Assembly (NCBI GenBank): GCA_041493605.1
Contig: JBGPZD010000001.1
Coordinates: forward strand, 5,936 to 69,935
Reading direction: 5' to 3'
DNA: 64,000 nucleotides
From: Candidatus Methylomirabilia bacterium
GTDB taxonomy: Bacteria; Methylomirabilota; Methylomirabilia; Rokubacteriales; CSP1-6
The notes under the pieces were generated by a model, which worked only from the letters and a program-made list of their open reading frames with translations, ran no database searches and was not told where the DNA came from. Shown here in pieces: positions 2,531 to 53,878 of this stretch (position 1 is the first letter of the stretch; each line of letters starts with the position of its first letter). Made by a program: the position numbers and the translations under genes.

Positions 2531-6000
<3,470 letters not shown>

Positions 6001-6022
6001 CGATTTCCGCTCCCATGGGACG

Positions 6023-7117
6023 TCAAATCCTCATGGGCATAATAACACAGAGCGCACCGTCTTCCTCGAAGCTTTTGATCACTCCGGGACTCAATCCATC
6101 CTTTACTTCGAGAATGATCTGCTCGCCCGTCTGCGCTCCGAGCGCGTCCAGCACATAGCGGGAATTGAATCCGATCGTGATCTCCTCGCCGGCGTATTGA
6201 ATCTCAACCTGCTCCTCGGCCTCCCCGAAATCCGGGCTGTACGCGGTCATTTTCAGGACGCCCGATGACAGAACGAACTTGACCGGCTTCGTGCGCTCCT
6301 CCGAGAGCACCGAGACCCGCCGTAGCGCCGCCGTCAGCGCCCCTCGCGCGATCGTGATGCGGTGCGGGTGCGCCTTCGGGACAACCTGCTCGTAATTCGG
6401 GAACGTCCCTTCGATCAGCCGCGCGATCAGCAGCACATTGGGCATTCGCAGCATGAACTGGTTCTCTCCGACGGTGATCTGGACCTCCTCCCCGGAGCCC
6501 ACAATGCGCGCGATCTCCTGGACGGCCTTCCGAGGCACGATACCGGACACCGCCGGCGCCCCGGCGGGCAGCGCGCGAACCGCCAGCGCCAGCCGGTGCC
6601 CATCGGTCGCGACCAGCCGCAGCTCCGTGTCGCGCACGACAAAGAGCACTCCGTTCAGCGCGTAGCGGCTCTCGTCGTGGGAGATGGCGAAGGTGGTCTG
6701 GGTCAGCATGTCGCGCAACATCTTGCCGTCGACGGTGATCCAGCTGGCCCCGGCCCCGTCGCCCACCGCCGGAAAATCCTCAGGGGTAAGCCCCACGAGC
6801 TTGTAGGACACTCCGCCGCACCGCAGCGCCACCCAGGCGTTCTCCTGGACTTTGAGGGACAGCGGTGCCGCCGGCAACTCCTTGACGATCTCCATGAGCT
6901 TCCGGGCCGATATCGTGATGGCCCCGGCCGCGGCCACCTTGGCCGGCGCCGACACCCGCACCCCGACCTCGAGGTCCGTGGCGGTCATCCGCACCGTGTC
7001 CCCCTGGGCCTCGAGCAGCACGTTGGCCAGGATGGGCAGCGTCTGGCGGGGCTCGACCACGTTGTGTACCATCTGGAGCCCGCGGAGAAACGCATCGCGA
7101 TCCACATGGACTTCCAT
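6023..7117 (-). CDS. dnaN: DNA polymerase III beta sliding clamp
   Basis: Starts MEVHVDRDAFLRGLQMVHNVVE with a GGAGG RBS upstream. ~365 aa, typical DnaN length, ending ...LCVIMPMRI. The track ORF 6023..7372 is extended upstream across the AT-rich intergenic region and is not used. Confidence 0.9.
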   Translation of the reverse strand: MEVHVDRDAFLRGLQMVHNVVEPRQTLPILANVLLEAQGDTVRMTATDLEVGVRVSAPAKVAAAGAITISARKLMEIVKELPAAPLSLKVQENAWVALRCGGVSYKLVGLTPEDFPAVGDGAGASWITVDGKMLRDMLTQTTFAISHDESRYALNGVLFVVRDTELRLVATDGHRLALAVRALPAGAPAVSGIVPRKAVQEIARIVGSGEEVQITVGENQFMLRMPNVLLIARLIEGTFPNYEQVVPKAHPHRITIARGALTAALRRVSVLSEERTKPVKFVLSSGVLKMTAYSPDFGEAEEQVEIQYAGEEITIGFNSRYVLDALGAQTGEQIILEVKDGLSPGVIKSFEEDGALCVIMPMRI

Positions 7118-7283: not shown

Positions 7284-8603
7284 TCACAGGTTGATGCTCT
7301 GGGTAAGTGTGTCCAGAGTCTTCTTGAATTTGGGATCTTCGCGGAGCAGCGCCTGGATCTTGTCGACCGCATGGAGAACGGTGGTATGGTCCTTGCCTCC
7401 GAAGGCGCGGCCGATCTCTGCGAGCGACATGTGGGTGAGCTGGCGGGCCAAGTACATGGCGATCTGGCGTGGGAAGGCCACGGCCTTGGTTCGGTTCTTG
7501 GCCCGCATGTCGGAGAGCTTGATGCCGAAGAACTCCGACGCCTTCCGCTGGATGTGCTCCACCGTGATGATGCGTTCTTCCTCCCCCCAGAGATCGGAGA
7601 GGACCTCCTGGGCCAAGTCGACGCTCATCTCGCGGCCGCTGAGCGAGCAGAAGGCAACCATGCGGGTGAGCGACCCCTCGATCTCGCGGATGTTCGCCTT
7701 GATGCGGGACGCGATCAAGTACGCCACGTCGTCGGGCAGACGGACACGCTCGATCTCCGCCTTCTTCTTGAGAATGGCGACGCGCGTCTCGAAGTCGGGG
7801 GGCTGGATGTCTGCGATGAGCCCCCACTCGAAGCGGGAGCGGAGCCGCTCCTCAATCTCGGGGATTTCTTTTGGCGCGGAATCGGACGAGACGACGATTT
7901 GTTTCCGCGCTTCGTAGAGGTCGTTGAAGGTGTGGAAGAACTCCTCCTGGGTGCGTTCCTTCCCCGAGATGAACTGGATGTCGTCGATCAGGAGTAGGTC
8001 GATGGTGCGGTACTTCGCCCGGAATTCCGCGGTGCGGTCGTAGCGGATGGCGTTGATCAGGTCGTTGGTGAACCGCTCCGAGGAGAGGTAGAGGAGCTTC
8101 ATGGTCGGATACAGGCGGGCGATCTGGTGGCCAACGGCGTGCAACAGGTGGGTCTTGCCCAGGCCGACACCGCCGTAGATGAACAGCGGGTTGTAGGCCT
8201 TGGAGGGCAGCTCCGCGACTGCCTGACAAGCCGCCTGGGCGAACTGGTTGGAGTTGCCGACGACGAAGGACTGGAACGTGTAGCGAGAGGACAGGCCCGT
8301 GGCAAGCGCGGCCGGCGCGGATGCGCTGGGCGCGGTTGGCGCGGGCGCGGCGCGCCCCGGCTCACGGTCGAGCTCGATGACGACGCGCGGGGCGCCGCCG
8401 AGCACATCGCGCGCGGCGGCTTCGAGCGCGGCGACGTGGTGCTGGGTCAGCCAGTCGCGCGTGAACTTGTTCGGGGCTGCGACGCGAAGGATATCGCCGT
8501 CGATCGCGGCCAGCCGGCAGGGCCGCAGCCAGGAGTCGAGGGCCGTATCGGGCAGCTTGCCCTCAAGTGTAGCGAGGAGCCGCTGCCACAAGGAGTCAAG
8601 CAT
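7284..8603 (-). CDS. dnaA: Chromosomal replication initiator DnaA
   Basis: 439 aa. AAA+ Walker A GGVGLGKTHLLHA. C-terminal DNA-binding helix-turn-helix region (AFPRQIAMYLARQLTHMSLAEIGRAFGGKDHTTVLHA). Confidence 0.95.
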   Translation of the reverse strand: MLDSLWQRLLATLEGKLPDTALDSWLRPCRLAAIDGDILRVAAPNKFTRDWLTQHHVAALEAAARDVLGGAPRVVIELDREPGRAAPAPTAPSASAPAALATGLSSRYTFQSFVVGNSNQFAQAACQAVAELPSKAYNPLFIYGGVGLGKTHLLHAVGHQIARLYPTMKLLYLSSERFTNDLINAIRYDRTAEFRAKYRTIDLLLIDDIQFISGKERTQEEFFHTFNDLYEARKQIVVSSDSAPKEIPEIEERLRSRFEWGLIADIQPPDFETRVAILKKKAEIERVRLPDDVAYLIASRIKANIREIEGSLTRMVAFCSLSGREMSVDLAQEVLSDLWGEEERIITVEHIQRKASEFFGIKLSDMRAKNRTKAVAFPRQIAMYLARQLTHMSLAEIGRAFGGKDHTTVLHAVDKIQALLREDPKFKKTLDTLTQSINL

Positions 8604-9464: not shown

Positions 9465-9709
9465 CGGCAGTCGGCCGTGCGGCCGCGCTGGTGGTGCGCG
9501 GGTACCAGAACCTCATACGCCCGTTCCTGCCGCCTGCGTGCCGCTTCGAGCCGAGCTGCTCCGATTACAGCCGGCAGGTGTTGATCACCCACGGGCTCAT
9601 GCGCGGCGGGTGGCTGACCGTCCGCCGGATCGGGCGTTGCCACCCGTGGCACCCCGGAGGGTACGATCCGCCGCCCCCGCACCTGCCACCACAGACACCG
9701 GGAGCCTAA
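9461..9709 (+). CDS. yidD: Membrane protein insertion efficiency factor YidD
   Basis: GTG start overlapping the rnpA stop. Conserved YidD motif YQNLIRPFLPPACRFEPSCSDYSRQVLITHG. Confidence 0.8.
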   Translation: MTAVGRAAALVVRGYQNLIRPFLPPACRFEPSCSDYSRQVLITHGLMRGGWLTVRRIGRCHPWHPGGYDPPPPHLPPQTPGA

Positions 9710-11475
9710 TGGAGAAGCGAGCGATCGTCGCCGCCATGCTGATGGCGGGCCTGCTGCTGGTTTACCAGTTCCTGTTCGTGACGCCGCAGGAACCCAAGCA
9801 GGCTCCGGCTCCACAGAAGGCCGAGGCGCCGATGGCGCCGGCGGCCGCGCCGAGCCCGCCGCCGCCCGTCTCGAGTCCCCCACCTCCCCTGCCCGGGAAA
9901 GATCTCCCACAGGTTCCCGAGCGGTCCGTCGTGGTAGAGACGCCTCTGTATCGGGCCGTTATCGGGAGCGTGGGCGGTGCCATCCAGGCCTGGGAGCTGC
10001 GGTACCGGGGGAACAAACCGATGGTCCTGCCCGGGGTCATCAGCTCTCAAGGACTGACCGTGTACACCCCCGGGCAGGCTCCGCGGGTGTTGGCGTTCGC
10101 CATTACAGGAGACTCCCTGAAGCTCGACACGGAACGGCCAGAGGGCGAACTGCGCCTCGTGGGGGACGATGGGTTCGGGCTTCGCGTGACCCAGGTACTC
10201 CGGTTCCGGGCCGACAGTTACGTGGTCGATCGGGAAATCAAAGTCGAGAACCGGCATCGCGTGCCCCTGAGCGCGGGGCTTGCCCTGAACTGGACGGCGC
10301 CGGTCGAACGGTCGAAAGATCTGGAGGAGAACTTCAAGGGGCCCCGCCCGCTCCATGTGGTCCGGCTCGAGAGCGGAGCCTTCTGGGCGCGCCGCGAGAG
10401 TCTCGCCCAGGCGCAGGACGTCGTCGGCGCCGGCCGGTGGACGGCCTTCGAGAGCGCCATGGCGCCAGTGGGGGCCAACGGTGTGTACCTGACCGCCGTG
10501 ATACCCGGCGCGCCCGACATCAAGGTGACCGAAGCGAGAATCGCCGACCCGGCGGGAAAGGAAGGAAAGGCTCCGAAGGCCGCGGAAATCGGCGTCCGGG
10601 TCACAGTGTCTGCGCTCGCGCCTGGTCAGGCATGGCAGGGACGCGTGCGGAGCTACCTTGGCCCGATGGAGTACGATCGCCTGAAGGCGCTCGGCGTCGG
10701 GCTCGAGAAGGCGATTTACTTCGGCGGATTCCCATTCCTCGAATCGTGGGCCCAGAAGTGGGGCGTGCCGACCATCCCGATGGAGTGGATCGTCGTGCCG
10801 ACCCTGGAGTTCATGCAATGGCTCTATAAGTACACTCGGAATTACGGGATTGTGATCATCCTCCTGACGGTGCTGATCAAGCTGGTGTTCTTCCCGCTCA
10901 CCGTGAAGAGCATGACTTCGATGAAGGCGATGCAGGCCCTGCAGCCGCAGATCAACGCCCTTCGCTCCAAGTACAAGAACGACTCGCAGCGGATCCAGCA
11001 GGAGACCATGGCGCTCTACCGGCAGCACAAGGTCAACCCGCTGGGCGGCTGCCTGCCCATGGTCGTGCAGATTCCGGTCTTCATCGCCTTGTACGTCGCA
11101 CTCTCGGTATCGGCCGAGCTGCAGAATCAGCCCTTCATCTGCTTCGGCGAGGCGCCGCGGTGGCTTCCCCTGCTCGGCGGGCAAGACGTGTGGATCTGCA
11201 ACCTGGCCGGGGCGGACCCCACCTATGTGCTGCCGATTCTCATGGGCGTGTCCATGTTCATCCAGCAGAAGATCACGCCGGTCATGGGTGACCCGCGCCA
11301 GGCGAAGATGATGATGTTCATGCCGATCCTGTTCACCTACTTCTTCCTCTCCATGGCATCCGGGTTGGTGCTGTACTGGACCCTCTCCAACGTGCTCCAG
11401 ATCGGCCAGCAGAAATACATGGAGCGGCACGGCAAGACGGAGAACGCGCCGGTCCGCGCCGCCAAGAAGGCGTGA
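9709..11475 (+). CDS. yidC: Membrane protein insertase YidC
   Basis: Starts MEKRAIVAAMLMAGLLLVYQF, overlapping the yidD stop (TAATG). Pro/Ala-rich periplasmic linker. C-terminal Oxa1/YidC core (NYGIVIILLTVLIKLVFFPLT ... QPQINALRSKYKNDSQRIQQETMALY). Confidence 0.9.
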   Translation: MEKRAIVAAMLMAGLLLVYQFLFVTPQEPKQAPAPQKAEAPMAPAAAPSPPPPVSSPPPPLPGKDLPQVPERSVVVETPLYRAVIGSVGGAIQAWELRYRGNKPMVLPGVISSQGLTVYTPGQAPRVLAFAITGDSLKLDTERPEGELRLVGDDGFGLRVTQVLRFRADSYVVDREIKVENRHRVPLSAGLALNWTAPVERSKDLEENFKGPRPLHVVRLESGAFWARRESLAQAQDVVGAGRWTAFESAMAPVGANGVYLTAVIPGAPDIKVTEARIADPAGKEGKAPKAAEIGVRVTVSALAPGQAWQGRVRSYLGPMEYDRLKALGVGLEKAIYFGGFPFLESWAQKWGVPTIPMEWIVVPTLEFMQWLYKYTRNYGIVIILLTVLIKLVFFPLTVKSMTSMKAMQALQPQINALRSKYKNDSQRIQQETMALYRQHKVNPLGGCLPMVVQIPVFIALYVALSVSAELQNQPFICFGEAPRWLPLLGGQDVWICNLAGADPTYVLPILMGVSMFIQQKITPVMGDPRQAKMMMFMPILFTYFFLSMASGLVLYWTLSNVLQIGQQKYMERHGKTENAPVRAAKKA

Positions 11476-12211: not shown

Positions 12212-12233
12212 AACCAAGCGGATCCTAGGGTAA

Positions 12234-12264
12234 TGTTCCACGTGGAACTGTTCCACGTGGAACA
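12234..12264. promoter_or_regulatory. Two tandem parS-like centromere sites: TGTTCCACGTGGAACt and TGTTCCACGTGGAACA.
   Basis: Each is a perfect 14-bp palindrome, GTTCCACGTGGAAC. Each has one mismatch per half-site to the canonical parS TGTTTCACGTGAAACA. They sit immediately upstream of parA. Confidence 0.75.
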
Positions 12265-12277
12265 CCAAGGGGGGCAA

Positions 12278-13039
12278 GTGGGCCGAATCATTGCGGTTGT
12301 CAACCAGAAGGGCGGAGTGGGCAAGACGACTACCGCGATCAATGTGGCCGCCGGGCTGGCTCTGGCCGAGAAGAAGACCCTCCTCATCGATCTGGACCCT
12401 CAGGGCAATGCGACGACTGGCCTCGGAATCAGCAAGAAGGAAGTCGCCCACACGATTTACCACGTCCTCCTGGAAGGGGTGCCCATCGCCCAGGCCGTCC
12501 GGCCCACCGACCTGAAACTCCTGTCGATCATTCCCTCGGACATCGACTTGGTGGGAGCGGAAATCGAGCTCGTGACGTCCGAGGACCGCGAGCGACGGCT
12601 CAAGCACGCCCTGGGCTCGATATCGAGCCAGTACGATTACATCGTCATCGACTGTCCTCCCTCGCTCAGCCTGCTGACGCTCAATGCCCTCGCCGCGGCG
12701 GATTCGGCGCTCGTGCCCCTCCAGTGCGAGTACTACGCCATGGAAGGGCTGGCGCATATTCTCAGGACGATCACTCTGGTTCGGGAACGCCTCAACCCCG
12801 GCCTCAAGGTGGAAGGTATCGTGCTCACGATGTACGACGGCCGCACAAGCCTTGCGGCCCAAGTCAAGGCCGAGGTGCAGCAGCATCTTGGCGCCCAGGT
12901 TCTGACTACGATCATCCCCCGCAATATCCGACTCACCGAGGCCCCCAGCCACGGTAAGCCGATCATGCTCTACGACCTCCGGTCATCCGGGGCCACGGCG
13001 TATCTCGAACTCACCAAGGAGGTGCTCGCGCATGGCTAA
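12278..13039 (+). CDS. parA: Chromosome partitioning ATPase ParA/Soj
   Basis: GTG start after an AAGGGGGG RBS. Deviant Walker A VVNQKGGVGKTTTAIN. The track ORF start at 12233 lies inside the parS repeats and is probably not used. Confidence 0.85.
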   Translation: MGRIIAVVNQKGGVGKTTTAINVAAGLALAEKKTLLIDLDPQGNATTGLGISKKEVAHTIYHVLLEGVPIAQAVRPTDLKLLSIIPSDIDLVGAEIELVTSEDRERRLKHALGSISSQYDYIVIDCPPSLSLLTLNALAAADSALVPLQCEYYAMEGLAHILRTITLVRERLNPGLKVEGIVLTMYDGRTSLAAQVKAEVQQHLGAQVLTTIIPRNIRLTEAPSHGKPIMLYDLRSSGATAYLELTKEVLAHG

Positions 13040-13880
13040 CCGACACGGACTGGGCCGCGGGCTCGGAGCCCTTCTGTCCTCCACCTCGGAGCCCGATCTC
13101 GCAGGCGCCACCACCGACCTGCCCATCGACTCGATTACTCCAAACCCGAATCAACCAAGAAAAGCCTTTGATGACAAGACCTTACGTGAGCTTTCGGCTT
13201 CTCTTCGCCAGTCCGGAGTTCTTCAGCCCGTAGTTGTCCGGCGCCTCGGGCAAGGCTACCAGCTCGTCGTTGGGGAGCGGCGCTGGCGGGCCGCCAAGAT
13301 GGCGGGGCTCACTCGGATTCCCGCAGTCATTCGCGAAGCCACCGATGCCGAATGTCTCGAGCTGGCCTTGGTCGAGAACCTGCTCCGGGAAGACCTGAAC
13401 CCGATGGAGGAAGCCGAGGCCTACCAGCGGCTCCTGGCTGAGTTCGGCTGGACGCAAGAGGTGCTCGCGCACCGTGTCGGCCGGGACCGCAGCAGCATCG
13501 CCAACTGTTTGCGCCTGCTGAAGCTGCCTGAGCTGATCCAGACCGACCTGCGTGCGGGACGCTTGACGATGGGCCATGCGCGCGCGCTCCTCTCCCTCAC
13601 CTCCCCCGCGGATCAGCTCAAGCTGCGCGAGGAGATCCTGGCTCACTCGTGGTCGGTGCGAACCACGGAGGAGGGCGTTCAGGCCAAGCGCGCCAGGCCC
13701 GCGCGCCGCCAGCTCCGCCGCTCCCCCGAGCTCGCGGCGCTCGAGGACGCCCTCCGCTCGGCTCTGGCGACGCGGGTGCGCCTGATTGGCAACGAGCGCG
13801 CCGGCCGCATCGAGATTGCCTACACGTCTCGGGAGGAGCTGGACCGCCTGGCCGAGCTGATCACGTCCGCGAAGGCGTAG
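13032..13880 (+). CDS. parB: Chromosome partitioning protein ParB/Spo0J
   Basis: ParB box motifs (ITPNPNQPRKAFD, QLVVGERRWRAAKMAG). The HTH region is followed by a dimerisation tail. Overlaps the parA stop. Confidence 0.88.
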   Translation: MANRHGLGRGLGALLSSTSEPDLAGATTDLPIDSITPNPNQPRKAFDDKTLRELSASLRQSGVLQPVVVRRLGQGYQLVVGERRWRAAKMAGLTRIPAVIREATDAECLELALVENLLREDLNPMEEAEAYQRLLAEFGWTQEVLAHRVGRDRSSIANCLRLLKLPELIQTDLRAGRLTMGHARALLSLTSPADQLKLREEILAHSWSVRTTEEGVQAKRARPARRQLRRSPELAALEDALRSALATRVRLIGNERAGRIEIAYTSREELDRLAELITSAKA

Positions 13881-27696: not shown

Positions 27697-28052
27697 GGGG
27701 GCGACTGGTTTCGACGGGGGTCAGTGACGCGTAGGCGGCATCCCGAGGTGCTCTCTCCTCGTAAAACTGGGGGCACGGTTATAGCTGCCGACAATCAGCT
27801 AGCCCTGGCGGCCTAACACCCGCCAGCGCCCTCCGGATCGGGTCAACGGGGTCCGGGTTCGGGCGTCATATTCCGGTGGCTGGCTCCGAACCCCGCTCTT
27901 GGGTGAGGGGCGAGATCTTCAAGGAGCTGGCTGCCCCGACAACCAGCCGGTTGGAGGGACGGGCGGCGAGAGCAGAAGAGAACCGGCTATGGATGTAGAA
28001 GCCTGCTGCTGAGGATTTCCGGACGTGGGTTCGATGCCCACCGCCTCCACCA
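27697..28052 (+). ncRNA. ssrA: Transfer-messenger RNA (tmRNA, ssrA)
   Basis: 5' end GGGGGCGACTGGTTTCGACGGGGG. 3' end GGACGTGGGTTCGATGCCCACCGCCTCCACCA, a tRNA-Ala-like T-arm with CCA. Internal tag ORF ...GCC GAC AAT CAG CTA GCC CTG GCG GCC TAA, giving (A)ADNQLALAA. Confidence 0.9.
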
Positions 28053-28057
28053 TTCCG

Positions 28058-28096
28058 AGGCCCGCCCGGTTCGCCGGCGCGGGCCTCGCGTTTTTC
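28058..28096 (+). terminator. Rho-independent terminator after tmRNA
   Basis: GC-rich hairpin GGCCCGCCCGG-TTCG-CCGGCGCGGGCC followed by TCGCGTTTTT. Confidence 0.6.
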
Positions 28097-28161
28097 CCTA
28101 AAAGCTTCGTCCCGACTCGCGCCGGTTGCTACAATGGCGGCTACCGCAGACGCGGGCCCCG

Positions 28162-29706
28162 ATGAGACGGACACAGGCGGCGGGACTGCTGATGGTGGCG
28201 GCGCTGGTGGGGTGGCTCCTCACCGCGGCCGACGGGGCGCGCCCGGACGCCTTTGAGCTCAAGGGGCGGTCGGGCAGCCTGGGTCAGGTCGCCCTCGTCG
28301 TCGTGGATGACGGCGCGTCCTACGTGCCGGCCGAGCGGCTGGCCGCGCTGCTCAAGGGCTCCTGGGCGGTGAAGGGAACGCGGGGCACGCTCACCGTCGC
28401 CAAGCGCAGCGCCCAGTTCGTCAAAAACCAGTCCCGCATCGTGATCCAGGGCCAGGCGATGACCCTCGACGCTCCCGCGCGCCTGGGGGTGGCGGGCTGG
28501 CTCATCCCCGAGAGCTTCCTCATCAAGGGGCTGGGCCGCCTGGCGCCGGGCATCACGGCCACCGCCGTCGCTGACGCCAAGCGGCCGCCATCGAAGACCG
28601 TGCACGCCCCGGTGGTCCTCGAGGAGCTGCGCTCCCGCTCCTATCCCTCCTTCACCCGCGTGGTGGTCGAGACCGGGGGGATGCTCGCCTACGCCGTGTT
28701 CTCGGGCCCCCAGGAGATCCGCGTCCGACTTCCCGGTCTCGTGCTCTCAGGCGCACGGACCGAAGCGCTCGGCGACGGCCTCGTCAAGGAGATCCGCCTC
28801 GAGCCGGCCGGCGCCGACGCGGTGCTGCGCGTGCTGCTCGAGGGCGCGGCGGGCGAGGTGAAGGACTCGGTGCTCCAGGATCCGTTCCGGCTGGTGCTCG
28901 ACATCTATCGGCCCCGGGAGCCCGGCGGCGGCGAGCGCGGTCGCGAGGGCATCCAGCCGCTGCGCCTCATCGTGCTCGACGCCGGCCACGGCGGCCACGA
29001 TCCGGGCGCCACCGGGCCCAGCGGCGTCATGGAGAAAGACGTCGTCCTGGACGTGACCAAGCGAGTCGCACGGCTGGCTGAGGACGGCCTGGGCGTCAAG
29101 ATCGCGCTTTCGCGGACCACGGATGTCTTCGTGCCGCTCCGTGACCGGACCAATTTCGCCAACAAGCTGCGCGCCGACCTCTTCGTGTCGATCCACGCCA
29201 ACGCCCACCCCCGCGCCTACTCCGAAGGCGTGGAAACCTACTTCCTCTCCTCGGAGGCCTCCGACAGCGAGGCGCGCCAGGTGGCCGCCATCGAGAACGA
29301 CGTGGTGCAGCTCGAGACGCCGGCCGCGCGCCAGAAGGGCGATGTGCTCAAGAGCATTCTCTGGGACCTGGCGCAGTCGGAGTTCCAGGCGGAATCGAGC
29401 TTCATGGCGGAGACGGTCCAGGACTCGATGACCCAATCGCTCCGCCTGGTCAACCGCGGCGTCAAGCAGGCGGGCTTCTACGTCCTGGGCGGCGCGGCGA
29501 TGCCGGCCATCCTGATCGAGGTGGGCTTCCTCACCAACCGCAAGGAGGAGCGAAAGCTGGCGACACCTGAGTATCGCGAGGCCGTGGCGCGCGCGATCTA
29601 CGCCGGGCTCGCCGAGTACAAGCGCCGCTACGACCAGCGGCTGCGCACGGCCCAGACGGTTCCGGCCCGGGCCGAGCCGGCTCCCCGGACCGACGCCGCC
29701 CGATGA
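28162..29706 (+). CDS. N-acetylmuramoyl-L-alanine amidase (AmiC-like, amidase_3 family)
   Basis: C-terminal catalytic domain [15 protein letters not shown] ... [10 protein letters not shown] ... [25 protein letters not shown]-terminal signal and AMIN-like region. Confidence 0.85.
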
Positions 29707-50140: not shown

Positions 50141-50635
50141 ATGGCGATCCAGCGCACTCCGATGACGCGGGCGGGCTACGACCGCCTGAAATCCGAGCTC
50201 GAGCGGCTCAAGAAGCAACGACCGCTCCTCAGCAAGGCCATCGGCGAGGCGCGCGCCCACGGGGACCTGTCCGAGAATGCCGAGTACCACGCCGCGCGTG
50301 AGAAGCAGGGCTTCATCGAGGCGCGCATCAAGGAGCTCGAGGGCAGATTCAGCACCGCCGAGGTGCTCGATCCGCCCACCTCCGGGGACCGGGTGACCTT
50401 CGGCTCCACCGTCAGGCTCGAGGACGAGGCTGGCAAGGAGGCCCGCTATCAAATCGTGGGGTCGGACGAAGCGGACCCGACCCACGGCCGCATCTCGATC
50501 ATGGCGCCCCTGGCCCGCACGCTCATCGGCAAGAGGGTGGGCGATACGGTGGTGGCTGAGCTGCCCGGCGGCAAGAAGACCTTCGAGATCCTGGAGGCGA
50601 ATTTCCCCTGGCCGGAGGACGGCCAGCCGGGCTGA
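50141..50635 (+). CDS. greA: Transcription elongation factor GreA
   Basis: MAIQRTPMTRAGYDRLKSELERLKK ... AHGDLSENAEYHAAREKQGFIEARIKELE. Has a short C-terminal extension. Confidence 0.9.
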   Translation: MAIQRTPMTRAGYDRLKSELERLKKQRPLLSKAIGEARAHGDLSENAEYHAAREKQGFIEARIKELEGRFSTAEVLDPPTSGDRVTFGSTVRLEDEAGKEARYQIVGSDEADPTHGRISIMAPLARTLIGKRVGDTVVAELPGGKKTFEILEANFPWPEDGQPG

Positions 50636-51766
50636 TCAGGACCTCAGCGCTTCGCGCAGCTCCCGCGTGAGGGCTTCGACGGTGCCGCGAGTGCCACCCG
50701 CCAGCTTGGCCTTCCACTCCTTCTCGGTTTCGAAGCGGCGGTCCTTGAGCCGCTCGCCCCAAGGCTTGACGGCGTCGCGGATCGCGTGGAAGTCGAAGGC
50801 GTCGCGCTTGAGCTCCCGGGCGCGGGCCATCACGTCCGGGGCCACGCGGATGAAGGCGCGCAATGCGGCGCCAGTCTTGATCGAGTACTTCCGTCCCGCC
50901 CAAGCCGTCGGGAAGGCGGCGGCCACCGCCTTCATGTAGCTCAGGAAGAAGCGCTTGGCGTTCTGTCGCAGCTCGTTCATGCGCGCGCCGCCGCCGATCT
51001 TCTCCACCGCTTCGAGGAAATCCACGATCTCCTCGGCCAGCGGCGCCTGCGAGACGCGCCCGCGGCCGGTGCCCAGCATCTTGATGTCGCCGTGCAGCGG
51101 CGAGGTCTCGTCCTCGTTGAGCGAGCGGATCACGTCGTGGGCCAGGGCCTGATTGGGGTCGGGGTAGAGCTTGCGGCCCGCGAGGCTCACGATGTGCGAT
51201 GGGTTCAGGCGCGTGTGCTTGGCGTTGATGGTGACGAAGAGCTCCACGATCTGCCGCGCGTCGAGCCGGTCGAAAAGGACGGCGGGCACTTCGATCCCCA
51301 GGTTCTCGCCGGCCTGGGTCAGCGCGTGGAGGGCCAGCAGCCGGTGCTGGCCGTCGAGCACGCGGAGCACGCCGTGCTCCTCCGGGATCTGCAGCAGGCC
51401 CAGGTCGTGCTGGCTCGCCATGGGCGTGAAGGTGAAGCGCTTTTCCGAGGTGATGATGACGGCGCCCGGGATGGCCGGCAGCGTGCCCGCGTCTTTGCAA
51501 TCCCGGTAGTAGCCGACGAGCTCGTCGATCTTGCGCCGGATCACCGGCCGCTGGTAGGCGGTCTCGCTCTCGCCGATGCGCTTCTCGAGGGCCTCCCAGT
51601 TCACGCGCGCCCGGGTCGAGCGCTTCGGCTTGGCGGGTCCGGCCTCGGCGCCCCCGTAGCCCAGCACCTCGAATTTGACGAGGCGGTCGATGTCCTTGGC
51701 CGAGAAGGAGGCCTGGAAGAACTCGACTCCGAACTGCTTCACGCGATGCGCGGGGACCGTGATCAT
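50636..51766 (-). CDS. DGQHR-domain protein (DndB/DpdB-like, ParB/Srx-fold superfamily)
   Basis: 376 aa with the literal DGQHR motif (VLDGQHRLLALHAL) and a DndB-like FVTINAKHTRLNPSHIVSL region. GGAGG RBS. Stop is adjacent to and convergent with greA. No dndACDE or dpdA is nearby. Confidence 0.7.
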   Translation of the reverse strand: MITVPAHRVKQFGVEFFQASFSAKDIDRLVKFEVLGYGGAEAGPAKPKRSTRARVNWEALEKRIGESETAYQRPVIRRKIDELVGYYRDCKDAGTLPAIPGAVIITSEKRFTFTPMASQHDLGLLQIPEEHGVLRVLDGQHRLLALHALTQAGENLGIEVPAVLFDRLDARQIVELFVTINAKHTRLNPSHIVSLAGRKLYPDPNQALAHDVIRSLNEDETSPLHGDIKMLGTGRGRVSQAPLAEEIVDFLEAVEKIGGGARMNELRQNAKRFFLSYMKAVAAAFPTAWAGRKYSIKTGAALRAFIRVAPDVMARARELKRDAFDFHAIRDAVKPWGERLKDRRFETEKEWKAKLAGGTRGTVEALTRELREALRS

Positions 51767-51911
51767 GAACGCCTCCAGCTCGTAGGAGCCAACTGCGAAG
51801 ACCGATCCTAGGCTCGGCTACTCTAATCGAAGCCTAAACGCACGTCAACATTTACGTTTTCGCCGCTTGGCCGACTGGCGCCACCCCTAGATATTGTGCT
51901 CGATCTCTGGC

Positions 51912-51944
51912 TTATCCACAAGATGTGGGTAACCTGTGGATGGA
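51912..51944. promoter_or_regulatory. Ectopic DnaA-box cluster: TTATCCACA (perfect), TGTGGGTAA and TGTGGATGG.
   Basis: cTTATCCACAagaTGTGGGTAAccTGTGGATGG lies in the low-GC region ~150 bp upstream of the DGQHR gene start. The same 9-mer is in the dnaA upstream cluster at 8648..8667. Confidence 0.55.
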
Positions 51945-52171
51945 CAAATCCCTACCAATAGAGGTGGATTCGAGGACATTTGCTGAGCGAGAGCCGGCAA
52001 CCCGAGCGGTTGAATCAAACGGACGCGGCCTTCCCAATCCGGAGAGAAGCGAGAACGGGCGATCGTGCGAAACATTAGGCGCAGTCGGCACACTGGGCGA
52101 AGTCCTATTGCGTTCGGCTCTCTTCGCGCGCGCCCCGGTCATATCGAGGCCTCCACACCGGGCCTCCGCCC

Positions 52172-52199
52172 TTGACGAGACCGACCGGCGGGATATCAT
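52172..52199 (+). promoter_or_regulatory. Candidate sigma70 promoter TTGACG-N16-TATCAT for the membrane-protein/hydrolase operon.
   Basis: Near-consensus hexamers ~45 nt upstream of an AAGGAGG RBS and the ATG at 52249. Confidence 0.4.
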
Positions 52200-52248
52200 C
52201 GTCGCGCCGCGGCAGCGCGAGACGGGACACGAGCGGCAAGGAGGCTCC

Positions 52249-52986
52249 ATGAATCCCGAGGTTTGGAGCGCCATTCAGACGGCCCTCGACGACTACGTCA
52301 AATACCTCTGGCCCATGGCGGTGGCCCTCGCGGGGGTCGGCATCGCCACCATGGCGGCGCTGCAGATGGTCAAGGATCTTTTCCGACTTCAGTGGTATTT
52401 CAACCGGTGGCAGGTCCGCCGCTGGCTCGGCCAGCGGGCCCGGCGCTGCCACGAGCACGACGCGAGCTTTTCGCCCGACGCAGGCTGGGCTCACGTGCAG
52501 CTGATCACGCTGGCGACAGCCGGCGACGAGGACGCCTTCTACTCGCTCGACTGCCAGCAGATCGCGGCCCAGATGGCGGCCGCCTCGCAAATCGCGCTCG
52601 ATTATCCCCGCCTCTACTCCCACCTGTTCCTGTGTCTGGCGGCCGAGGCCGAGCCCGCCGACGTCAGGCGGGTGCTGGGGCCGCCGCCCAGGCCGGCGGC
52701 GAAGGACGCCTGGATCGCGGCCCGGAACCGGGTCGGCCACCAGGTCCAGCGGACGCTGGACGGTCTGCAGATCTCGATCACGAACCGTTGGAAGCGCTCG
52801 AACCAGCTCGTCTCCTACCTGCTCAACGTGCTGTTCGTGATGCTCGCGTTGCGATCCCTCAACGCGCGGCTGACGTCGATGCCGATCGTTGACTCCATGC
52901 TGGTCGCCCTGCTGAGCGGCTTCCTGGCCCCAGTGGCCAAGGACCTCGTGACCGCGCTGCAGCAGCTCCGGTCGCGGGCGCGATGA
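52249..52986 (+). CDS. Membrane protein of unknown function (N-terminal TM, two C-terminal TMs)
   Basis: Strong AAGGAGG RBS. Starts MNPEVWSAIQTALDDYVKYLWPMAVALAGVGIATMAAL. C-terminal LVSYLLNVLFVMLAL and SMLVALLSGFLAP helices. The track ORF 51925..52986 is extended upstream. Confidence 0.6.
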   Translation: MNPEVWSAIQTALDDYVKYLWPMAVALAGVGIATMAALQMVKDLFRLQWYFNRWQVRRWLGQRARRCHEHDASFSPDAGWAHVQLITLATAGDEDAFYSLDCQQIAAQMAAASQIALDYPRLYSHLFLCLAAEAEPADVRRVLGPPPRPAAKDAWIAARNRVGHQVQRTLDGLQISITNRWKRSNQLVSYLLNVLFVMLALRSLNARLTSMPIVDSMLVALLSGFLAPVAKDLVTALQQLRSRAR

Positions 52987-53864
52987 ACCCGGAGACCTGG
53001 CATGAGCTGAGCGTCCGCACCCTCCCGGTCGGCGGTCCCGTGGCCCCCGAGGTGGCCGAGGGGCCGCCCCTCTTCGTCCAGGGGCGGAGCCGCCTCGTCG
53101 TTTTCGTCCACGGGTACAACAACACCCTGTCGGTCGCCCGCGGATACTACACGGTGTTCGGCGGGCACCTCCAGGACGCGTATTCCGACGGGGGGCCGCT
53201 GGTGCCGGATCTGCTGGCGAAGTTTCACTGGCCCGGCGACGCCGGCCTGGGACCTATCTCGTTCATCAGTTACCCATTCGAGATCGAAGACGCCGAGAAT
53301 TCGGCGAAGAAGCTGGCCGGCTTCCTGCGCGGTCTCCGGGGTCCCGGGGGCGCGCCGATGCAGCTCGACATCGTGGCCGCGTCGCTCGGCTGCCGCGTCC
53401 TGCTCGAGACGATCCACGAGCTCTTGCCCACCCTCCAGCAGCTCGCGGTCCATTTTGGCGTGGTCTGCCTCATGGCCGCCGCGGTGCCGGTTGACATGAT
53501 GGACCCGGGCGAGCGGCTCGAGGGCACCTTGGAGGCGCCGCGGCGGCTTCTGGTGCTGCACTCGACGGGGGACCGCGTGCTCCACTACGCCTTCCCGCTC
53601 GGCCAGACCGCCGCCGGCGAAGGGTTCTTCCCCACCGCGCTCGGCCGCTTTGGCCCGCCGCCCTGGGCGCCGGGCGAGCACGTGCCGGTGGACGAGCTCG
53701 ACCACGGCGAGTACTGGGGCGCCGAGGTCTCCGCGTATGAGATCGCGAAGCGGCTCGGCCTGGGCCCGGTCCGCGAGCGCGTCCCGGCGCGCTCGCTGCC
53801 GCGCTATGACACGCCGGCCCGCGATCTGCCCACGCGAGACCTCCCGAATTACCAAGGGCCCTGA
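52983..53864 (+). CDS. Alpha/beta-hydrolase, DUF900-like (putative esterase/lipase), cytoplasmic
   Basis: ATGA overlap with the upstream gene. [19 protein letters not shown]. Nucleophile elbow-like [21 protein letters not shown]. No signal peptide. Starts MNPETW, like its upstream partner. Confidence 0.6.
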
Positions 53865-53878
53865 TCAAGGAGCGAGAC

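Follow-up and report, generated by a model that had tools for sequence, protein, structure and literature searches.

A Constrained, Stand-Alone DGQHR-Domain Gene near the Chromosomal Origin of Rokubacteria

The DGQHR-domain gene described here is a vertically inherited, stand-alone core gene of Rokubacteria and experiences stronger purifying selection than the adjoining greA. The gene occupies positions 50636..51766 (minus strand; ATG start, stop codon included, 376 amino acids) of the window, that is, the whole 64-kb stretch of DNA that was analyzed; this stretch corresponds to the origin region (dnaA/parAB) of a chromosome from Rokubacteria (Methylomirabilota). A DGQHR protein is almost automatically taken to mark a phosphorothioation or Dpd island, whereas this one belongs to a strongly constrained lineage-core subfamily for which no partner was seen. 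On balance, we favor a role for its product as a homodimeric, ATP/GTP-gated DNA-binding switch that would act alone on the host chromosome and not as a modification accessory.

Domain identity and predicted structure

The 376-residue open reading frame with the motif LDGQHRLL on which the original prediction was built is confirmed in the sequence, and the DGQHR codons (51341..51355, minus strand), read directly, encode residues D138 to R142. Assignment to the DGQHR domain was borne out by the NCBIfam profile TIGR03187, which matched over its full length (positions 1 to 276 of 276) with 120.1 bits against a cut-off of 58.85 and which was matched by all 10 family members tested. The Pfam DndB family (PF14072) was matched with 56.7 bits (cut-off, 29.1). 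The protein has no Pfam match to ParB_N (PF02195) or HTH_ParB.

Among the specific models, the DpdB equivalog NF041060 scored best, with 47.8 bits over residues 69 to 322 against a cut-off of 300; the DGQHR_dnd_1 model gave 43.6 bits, and the DndB equivalog TIGR03233 gave 26.2 bits over residues 68 to 188 only, against a cut-off of 328. The only PADLOC-DB matches were weak ones to DpdB and DndB, at 20 to 51 bits (including 50.7 bits for the DpdB profile and 25.3 bits for the DndB profile), and no partner genes were found in the window. The best match to the DpdB model among 10 family members had an E value of 9.8e-15, which falls well short of the cut-off level. Judged by these profile scores, the product of 50636..51766 is neither DndB nor DpdB.

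The superfamily is defined by a QR pair, a nearly invariant DGQHR pentapeptide, and an FxxxN motif (PMC4619093), and DGQHR is the counterpart of the phosphate-binding GxxRxxA box of ParB (role of the motif, PMC10164549). The complete set, which is predicted to bind NTP, is intact in the DGQHR protein: the QR pair, the first signature motif of DGQHR/DUF262 domains, is formed by Q72 and R73 (51548..51553, minus strand), and the FxxxN motif, F177 to N181 (51224..51238, minus strand), is followed by the invariant stretch AKHTRLNPSHIV. Scoring of 8,000 candidates yielded 5,609 homologs, the top 120 of which were 85 to 94% identical to the protein. Across homologs at 27 to 94% identity, R73 and residues D138 to R142 were present in all sequences, and 90% or more of them had Q72, F177, and N181.

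The structure model combines a ParB/Srx-fold N-terminal domain with an all-helical C-terminal domain. The former, a predicted NTP-binding (DGQHR) domain, spans residues ~1 to 200 (51167..51766, minus strand), and the latter, which is basic, spans residues ~201 to 376 (50639..51166, minus strand). A loop comprising residues 183 to 197 is invariant yet was modeled with pLDDT values below 50. A sequence search of solved structures gave no significant match, and Foldseek searches of the PDB gave weak ParB, PadC, and BrxU matches only; BrxU and SspE are among the structural matches. The C-terminal domain has no solved relative, no recognizable DNA-binding motif, and no nuclease, HTH, or HEPN signature. 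A HEPN RNase motif has been proposed for the C-terminal domain of DndB (PMC3632139), and an R-x5-H sequence (RDAFDFH, at about residues 321 to 327) does exist here, but it is unconserved in homologs and was rejected as a candidate. The protein has a computed mass of 42 kDa, a computed pI of 9.7, and a single cysteine, C90.

Transcription unit and junction with greA

The evidence supports transcription of the gene as a unit by itself, from its own conserved predicted promoter and with a convergent downstream gene, as had been proposed when the gene was called monocistronic. A sigma-70-type promoter is predicted at 51820..51848 (minus strand; TTGACG-17 nt-TAGAGT, preceded by an A-tract), and a Shine-Dalgarno sequence, GGAGG (51772..51776, minus strand), which is conserved in the window's subclade, lies 5 nt before the ATG. 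The pattern TTGAC-N17/18-TAnnnT was matched upstream of the gene in 82 of 82 sequences, comprising the window and 81 related loci. The distance from the -10 element to the ATG is 51 to 53 nt in the window's subclade and 9 nt in 32 loci, and the latter spacing suggests a leaderless mRNA. Inspection of the promoter alignment by eye revealed no conserved palindrome, inverted repeat, or operator, and autoregulation of the DndB type is therefore without support. Rfam searches (E of ≤1) near the gene and in the 480-bp upstream gap returned one chance-level snoRNA match only, and no tRNA lies near the gene. The GC3 of the gene (0.94) is like that of its neighbors, indicating native composition.

The downstream gene is greA (50141..50635, plus strand; Pfam GreA_GreB_N and GreA_GreB), which ends in a TGA stop at 50633-50635; the stop of the DGQHR gene follows immediately, reading TCA on the plus strand at 50636-50638. 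The stop-to-stop junction with zero spacing and the sequence TGATCA had been described correctly in all respects, and the palindrome arises automatically when two TGA stops abut. It is unconserved, with a spacing to greA that ranges from ~0 to 6.8 kb across 64 related loci. Convergent greA is the sole recurrent neighbor of the DGQHR gene (64 of 82 loci), and the adjacency is lost in all of the more distant relatives examined. A functional link to greA was considered and rejected on account of the variable spacing and this loss, and the adjacency is best explained as retained synteny.

Conservation and inheritance

Orthologs with 82 to 96% identity were found across 80 or more species-level genomes (with 131 confirmed by tblastn), and in all 80 of the species-level orthologs examined a single alignment covered at least 90% of the DGQHR protein. 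Mean pairwise identity among the orthologs is 0.868, and 201 of the 376 columns are invariant; the corresponding mean identities are 0.767 for GreA, 0.752 for HpcH, and 0.561 for SurA. The dN/dS of the DGQHR gene, 0.136, is the lowest of five local genes (greA, 0.235). The place of the DGQHR gene among the most constrained genes of the region and its location near the chromosomal origin had been missed earlier, as had the fact that it is not an island gene. Synteny is conserved in the order SurA/RND, greA, DGQHR, a variable slot, and MaoC/HpcH. The upstream neighbors differ by subclade (EamA, FAD oxidoreductase, GDT1, ABC transporter, IlvD, and others), and MaoC/HpcH lies 0.3 to 9.8 kb from the DGQHR gene with variable inserts.

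Eight distant relatives (27 to 53% identity; those named by source are from Binatia and Thermoplasmatota) stand in eight unrelated contexts, all of them solitary and free of dnd and dpd genes. The closest relatives on plasmids, in phages, or in viral sequences are at most 32% identical. Distant relatives were found on small plasmids of lactic acid bacteria and in phages; one distant relative adjoins CRISPR-cas genes, and another adjoins genes for WYL and M78 peptidase proteins. Hypothetical proteins encoded upstream of DGQHR genes on the lactic acid bacterial plasmids were evaluated as candidate partners and rejected; they are mutually dissimilar and have no homolog in the window or the related loci. 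A literature search found no paper on orphan or core DGQHR proteins or on DNA modification in Rokubacteria.

Proposed role and alternative explanations

The characterized relatives suggest how such a protein might work. DndB is a repressor that acts as a homodimer and binds to the promoter of its own gene (PMC4507180), and PMC10853773 cites it as ATP dependent. DpdB, also a homodimer, is an ATPase stimulated by DNA, and a DNA tunnel has been predicted in it (PMC10164549). A DndB-like protein, the sole one tested in PMC12704722, binds ATP and GTP. From these precedents we infer dimerization, NTPase activity, DNA binding, and a cellular role for the DGQHR protein, which has the two-domain DndB/DpdB-type architecture with the full motif set in the ParB/Srx N-terminal domain and a basic, all-helical C-terminal domain. 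It would form a homodimer whose N-terminal domains bind and hydrolyze ATP or GTP, and nucleotide binding would control whether a DNA-binding surface made up of the basic C-terminal domains and loops opens, closes, or is released. The protein might then serve as a transcription regulator or as a clamp-like nucleoid protein, and it would have no accessory part in phosphorothioation or in the insertion of 7-deazaguanine. The lack of a recognizable DNA-binding motif and of a solved relative for the C-terminal domain counts against this mechanism.

An unlikely alternative is that the protein is a DndB/DpdB-type regulator or ATPase for a modification system (phosphorothioation, 7-deazaguanine, or other) that is encoded elsewhere in the genome. 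[quoted passage not shown] The scores of the DGQHR protein and of nine other family members, however, fall well short of the equivalog thresholds of 300 to 450 bits, and the genes for DndB and DpdB are found together with those of their partners. In a comparative-genomics survey of Dnd, DndB is described as a component recruited to the DndD-DndE core gene neighborhood (PMC10853773), and DpdA and DpdB act together in vitro (PMC10164549). No such partners were encountered. The Pfam scan of the window covered open reading frames that passed a coding-composition filter, with several short candidates left out, and the scanned frames comprise housekeeping, metabolic, and transport genes only, with no dnd, dpd, ssp, or restriction gene among them; the reported lack of cognate modification genes within 13 kb is upheld and extends to the scanned frames across all 64 kb. 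Genes of the DndC, DndD, or DndE type were found neither among these frames nor within 10 kb in the related loci, a TGT-like gene (dpdA) or dpdC was found neither among these frames nor in the contexts examined, and a modification gene lay within 10 kb in none of ~90 contexts, including those of the eight distant relatives. Moreover, dnd systems are sporadic (PMC8569181), in contrast to a DGQHR gene that is uniform, syntenic, and constrained in at least 80 species.

It is improbable that the gene encodes a solitary defense or abortive-infection effector, a ParB/Srx NTPase or nuclease that depletes nucleotides or cuts invader DNA. Such an effector would resemble Abi-type COG1479 proteins or GmrSD/SspE, and the DGQHR/DUF262 superfamily is rich in such proteins (PMC3632139; PMC10853773). 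The structural matches to BrxU and SspE, the occurrence of distant relatives on small lactic acid bacterial plasmids and in phages, and the relatives beside CRISPR-cas and beside WYL and M78 peptidase genes are also in keeping with an effector. Yet the DGQHR protein lacks a nuclease domain and a conserved catalytic His/Asp cluster, and no close relative occurs on plasmids, phages, or viral contigs. The gene is a single gene of native composition, at a fixed position, with a dN/dS of 0.136, which is the opposite of what is seen with patchy, fast-evolving, island-borne defense genes and argues against an effector.

We regard with similar skepticism a function away from DNA, as a kinase or repair enzyme that uses ATP in the manner of sulfiredoxin, the free serine kinase SerK, or SbnI, perhaps in the metabolism encoded by flanking genes. 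The sole recurrent neighbor is greA, and the metabolic genes MaoC/HpcH are separated from the DGQHR gene by the variable inserts described above. The sulfiredoxin catalytic cysteine (FSGCHR) is replaced by DGQHR, the only cysteine being C90; the matching sequence profiles are all DGQHR models of DNA systems; and the protein is strongly basic.

The original prediction had also raised the possibility of a small module formed with a divergent pair of genes, a membrane-protein gene (52249-52986) and a DUF900 hydrolase gene (52983-53864). In the window the pair is indeed divergent from the DGQHR gene, across a gap of ~480 bp, but this does not extend to the same-species contigs L096 and L097 (95 to 96% nucleotide identity), in which a GDT1 gene and a small open reading frame lie between them. 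About 1.1 kb including the GDT1 gene is missing in the window (window positions 52007-52168 versus L096 positions 4087-5186), and the divergent adjacency is confined to the window for this reason. A joint module (52249..53864 with the DGQHR gene) can be dismissed, because the neighborhood comparison found no homolog of either protein of the pair in 82 of 82 related loci, even at an E value of ≤0.01; because the same two-gene cassette (63% identity) lies in an island with integrases and a STAND NTPase, and without a DGQHR gene, in another lineage; and because DUF900 homologs are rare (186) and scattered.

With no link to its neighbors, the DGQHR gene would appear to be a housekeeping-type variant and not a hidden defense module, and a self-sufficient, nucleotide-gated DNA-binding switch remains our preferred reading. 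A bolder proposal, which we put forward only tentatively and consider rather doubtful as a whole, is that a DndB/DpdB-type ParB/Srx NTPase was domesticated in Rokubacteria as an essential-like, stand-alone nucleotide-gated DNA clamp or global regulator near oriC, and that such domestication extends, independently or anciently, to other lineages, including Binatia and Thermoplasmatota.

If the protein is a lone nucleotide-gated DNA binder, the functions of the DndB/DpdB branch of the ParB/Srx fold would reach beyond defense into chromosome biology, and a family so far known only from DNA modification and defense would have a housekeeping role, comparable to those of Noc and KorB, which derive from ParB. 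For annotation, the gene is a warning that defense-island predictors should not score such orphans as Dnd or Dpd remnants. The practical value is limited for now, as the Rokubacteria hosts are uncultured.

Comparison with known systems

DndB (TIGR03233), the regulator of dndBCDE phosphorothioation, is similar in size to the 376-residue DGQHR protein and shares with it the QR/DGQHR/FxxxN domain, the N-terminal ParB/Srx fold, and a helical C-terminal half; our proposed mechanism is modeled on DndB as a DNA-binding, ATP-modulated homodimer. The DGQHR gene differs in its score (26.2 bits versus 328), in never standing beside dndCDE in the contexts examined, in a promoter that by eye has no conserved palindromic operator, and in belonging to the vertically inherited core of the genome instead of a sporadic island. 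DpdB (NF041060), which works as an ATPase alongside the DNA transglycosylase DpdA in the Dpd 7-deazaguanine system, has the same two-domain layout; like the DGQHR protein, it is devoid of the nuclease motif by which the equivalent domain of SspE is recognized (PMC10164549). In this case the differences are a score far below the 300-bit cut-off, the lack of dpdA or dpdC nearby, and the pentapeptide itself, which is DGQHR here and is given as DGQQR for DpdB (PMC10164549).

SspE, BrxU, and GmrSD couple a DUF262 NTPase to a nuclease, whereas the DGQHR protein has no DUF1524/HNH nuclease domain, its C-terminal domain is unrelated to any solved structure, and its gene lies outside defense islands. 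The orphan switches built on the ParB-CTPase fold (Noc, KorB, BisD, and PadC) offer a further parallel, from which the DGQHR protein is set apart by the lack of ParB_N and HTH_ParB; the canonical ParA/ParB pair of this chromosome is encoded separately, at 12233-13880. ParB uses CTP, whereas the DndB-like protein studied in PMC12704722 bound ATP and GTP.

A stand-alone member of the DGQHR domain superfamily

The 376-amino-acid open reading frame at 50636..51766 (-) is a real gene, with an ATG start, a Shine-Dalgarno sequence (GGAGG; 51772-51776, minus strand), and a third-position GC content of 0.94, equal to that of its neighbors. Its product matches the NCBIfam model for the DGQHR domain (TIGR03187) over the full length of the profile, scoring 120.1 bits (cutoff 58.85), which bears out the predicted architecture, and the LDGQHRLL peptide can be read directly from codons 51341-51355 (-). 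All three motifs that mark the domain (QR, DGQHR, and FxxxN; PMC4619093) are present and are kept in homologs down to 27% identity. The protein carries all three defining features of the DGQHR domain superfamily and is a member of it; this domain call is not new, because near-identical proteins are already named "DGQHR domain-containing protein" in public records. The original description of the gene as DndB/DpdB-like holds at the level of Pfam DndB (PF14072; 56.7 bits, cutoff 29.1) and of the motif set but not at the level of DndB or DpdB proper, as the protein falls far short of the equivalog models for DpdB (47.8 bits, cutoff 300), DGQHR_dnd_1 (43.6 bits, cutoff 450), and DndB (26.2 bits, cutoff 328). 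PADLOC agrees that it fails specific models of the DndB/DpdB type, and nine more full-length family members likewise fail the equivalog models. Membership in DndB, DpdB, SspE/GmrSD, and canonical ParB was rejected in each case after testing for their defining features. The protein is basic (pI 9.7), lacks a conserved His/Asp cluster, and has an invariant, flexibly modeled loop (residues 183-197) beside FxxxN; no solved structure is related to it by sequence.

The window covers a chromosomal replication-origin region. Pfam scans of candidate open reading frames that passed a coding-composition filter, which left out several short ones, identified gyrA (62-2512, -), gyrB (2531-4975, -), recF (4909-6000, -), dnaA (7284-8603, -), yidC (9538-11475, +), and canonical parA (12233-13039) and parB (13032-13880), followed by mnmA, ATP synthase genes, and then genes for metabolism and transport. 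The genome therefore has an ordinary ParB besides the DGQHR protein, the gene for which lies about 43 kb from dnaA. The gene had been described as an orphan without modification partners within 13 kb, and its isolation extends further: among the open reading frames scanned across the 64 kb, none was identified as a dnd, dpd, or ssp gene or as a gene for restriction or a methyltransferase. ARAGORN reported a transfer-messenger RNA (tmRNA) at 27697-28052 (tag ADNQLALAA) and a second, overlapping "permuted" tmRNA at 27956-28535 that extends into an amidase gene (28126-29706) and is probably a false positive.

Downstream, the DGQHR gene converges on greA (50141..50635, +), which encodes both GreA/GreB Pfam domains. 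The zero spacing and the TGATCA junction that had been pointed out are there, as the greA stop (50633-50635) abuts that of the DGQHR gene (50636-50638), and the palindrome arises automatically from two TGA codons standing back to back. Across related genomes this gap ranges from about 0 to several kilobases (1.5 to 6.8 kb in some loci), so the junction carries no signal. Upstream, a sigma-70-type promoter (TTGACG-17-TAGAGT, 51848-51820) is present, and a TTGAC-N17/18-TAnnnT match occurs in each of the 82 upstream regions aligned, those of 81 loci plus the window's own. The leader between promoter and gene (51767-51848) varies among the 82 loci though the promoter is kept: in the window's subclade the -10 element lies 51 to 53 nucleotides from the ATG and a Shine-Dalgarno sequence is present, and in 32 loci it lies just 9 nucleotides away, a spacing that points to a leaderless mRNA in the subclade concerned.

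Vertical inheritance and constraint in Rokubacteria

The closest proteins share 85 to 94% identity with the DGQHR protein, and their sources are mostly named as Methylomirabilota, Rokubacteria, or NC10 metagenome-assembled genomes (MAGs). When one genome per species was scanned, 131 relatives were confirmed, mostly with Rokubacteria or Methylomirabilota in their record titles along with a few MAGs under other names; the best 80 of the 131 are full length at 82 to 96% identity, and all 80 species-level orthologs examined gave a single alignment over at least 90% of the protein. We read 10 kb on either side in 82 related loci, where the recurring order was SurA-type peptidyl-prolyl isomerase, (RND pump), greA, DGQHR gene, variable slot, and MaoC-HpcH, with greA convergent and downstream in 64 of the 82 and MaoC upstream in 56, at distances of 0.3 to 9.8 kb. 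The DGQHR gene had the highest conservation among the local genes compared, with a mean pairwise identity of 0.868, a median dN/dS (versus the window's gene) of 0.136, and 201 of the 376 alignment columns invariant in the 81 sequences; the corresponding identity and dN/dS values were 0.854 and 0.147 for MaoC, 0.767 and 0.235 for GreA, 0.752 and 0.234 for HpcH, and 0.561 and 0.472 for SurA. The nearest relatives on plasmids, phages, and viral contigs reached at most 32% identity. Such a pattern marks a core gene passed down vertically and not a mobile defense gene. The novelty lies in the deployment: solitary, close to the origin, and highly constrained, it is a core gene throughout a candidate phylum of uncultured hosts. 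A literature search found no paper on DGQHR proteins deployed as stand-alone core genes.

That the protein is a DndB or DpdB serving a distant cluster in trans is unlikely, given the failed equivalog scores, the usual clustering of DndB and DpdB with their partners, and the sporadic distribution of dnd (PMC8569181) as opposed to the uniform presence of the DGQHR gene. A solitary defense or abortive-infection effector is somewhat less probable still, as the protein has no nuclease domain and its gene evolves as a core gene.

A variable slot and a mobile cassette

The slot between the DGQHR gene and MaoC/HpcH (51767-53878 in the window) spans 0.3 to 9.8 kb, and its content is subclade specific, including EamA, FAD oxidoreductase, GDT1, a branched-chain ABC transporter, amidohydrolase, IlvD, PrpD, NIPSNAP, and DinB. 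The gene directly upstream of the DGQHR gene in other subclades encodes an EamA transporter, FAD oxidoreductase, GDT1, ABC transporter components, IlvD, PrpD, or others, with no recurring partner across subclades. An enzyme of the ParB/Srx fold that does not act on DNA would fit the structural neighbors Srx, SerK, and SbnI, but the catalytic Cys of Srx is absent, no metabolic neighbor recurs, and every matching sequence profile is a DNA-system model, which makes this reading about as improbable as a defense effector.

In the window the slot holds a 245-amino-acid membrane protein without a Pfam match (52249-52986) and a 293-amino-acid DUF900 alpha/beta hydrolase (52983-53864), the genes of which overlap by 4 bp. 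Homologs of both are absent from all 82 related loci, even at a threshold of E≤0.01; among Rokubacteria loci the pair is confined to the window's species, and DUF900 homologs number 186 in 5.8 billion proteins, scattered, with Sulfuriferula and Gemmatimonadaceae among the few named sources. Two same-species contigs (95 to 96% nucleotide identity) carry the pair adjoining MaoC, separated from the DGQHR gene by a GDT1 transporter gene and a 67-amino-acid open reading frame. About 160 bp in the window (52007-52168) stands against about 1.1 kb in these contigs (4087-5186 in L096), and a strain-level deletion or replacement of that segment created the divergent adjacency, which is real in the window but not in the same-species contigs. 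A copy of the cassette in another lineage (63% identity, with an identical 4-bp overlap) is flanked by integrase genes and a 1,455-amino-acid STAND NTPase and has no DGQHR gene with it; cassette coordinates are 52249-53864 in the window, 5267-6882 in L096, and 5252-6906 in a further locus, L098. The absence of homologs from the 82 loci, the intervening GDT1, and the integrase context thus identify the pair as a mobile unit of two genes that entered the variable slot, a candidate conflict or defense cassette. The proposal that the DGQHR gene forms a small module with these divergent neighbors is refuted by the same three observations.

Distant relatives and proposed function

Searched exhaustively and without a profile, 1.84 billion representatives yielded 1,039 clusters at E≤1e-3 and, at the stricter E≤1e-30, 107. 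Full-length relatives at 27 to 53% identity are 370 to 396 amino acids long, and those with a named source come from Binatia and Thermoplasmatota. The surroundings of eight distant relatives were examined; each is different, and dnd and dpd genes are missing from all of them, so that solitude is a property of this superfamily branch and not of this genome alone. Distant relatives lie between an AAA ATPase and an N4/N6 DNA methyltransferase (L083, 8043-13359), divergent from a 526-amino-acid ThyX-domain protein with a Ser/Thr kinase in the context (L086, 4193-7159), next to type I-U cas genes (Cas_GSU0053; L095, 218-4241), in a WYL/M78-peptidase region, and beside HEAT-repeat and luciferase-like genes, ETF genes, or LamB and amylase. 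The cas, AAA ATPase/methyltransferase, and ThyX neighbors do not recur. Small plasmids of lactic acid bacteria carry a two-gene unit of a hypothetical protein (260 to 273 amino acids) and then a DGQHR protein (365 to 369 amino acids; 24 to 27% identity to the window's protein over residues 1-310), at 3127-5079 in pCD033 (L091) and 5222-7098 in pVF21 (L092). Both plasmids are too small to hold a dnd cluster, and their upstream proteins are mutually dissimilar and without a Pfam domain.

As a homodimer, DndB binds its own promoter and acts as a repressor of dndBCDE (PMC4507180), and it is cited elsewhere as ATP dependent (PMC10853773). DpdB is a homodimeric, DNA-stimulated ATPase that is needed for preQ0 insertion by DpdA, and its model has a basic tunnel of a width that admits double-stranded DNA (PMC10164549). 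In a survey devoted to the ParB-CTPase fold, a DndB-like protein was able to bind ATP as well as GTP (PMC12704722). The window's protein shares the two-domain size and layout of DndB and DpdB and keeps the complete nucleotide-binding motif set. The identity, solitary position, inheritance, and constraint of the gene are shown directly; from the motifs, layout, strong basicity, invariant loop, and characterized relatives, we infer, with somewhat better than even confidence, a homodimeric switch that would bind and hydrolyze ATP or GTP and whose DNA binding would be gated by nucleotide. Because the gene is partnerless in every context and is a core gene, its product would act by itself on the host chromosome, as a regulator or a clamp-like nucleoid protein. 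Its reading as a domesticated clamp is more tentative and rather doubtful, and, if true, would notably broaden the picture of the ParB/Srx fold. In acting alone on the host chromosome, the DGQHR protein would resemble Noc and KorB, which are orphan derivatives of ParB.
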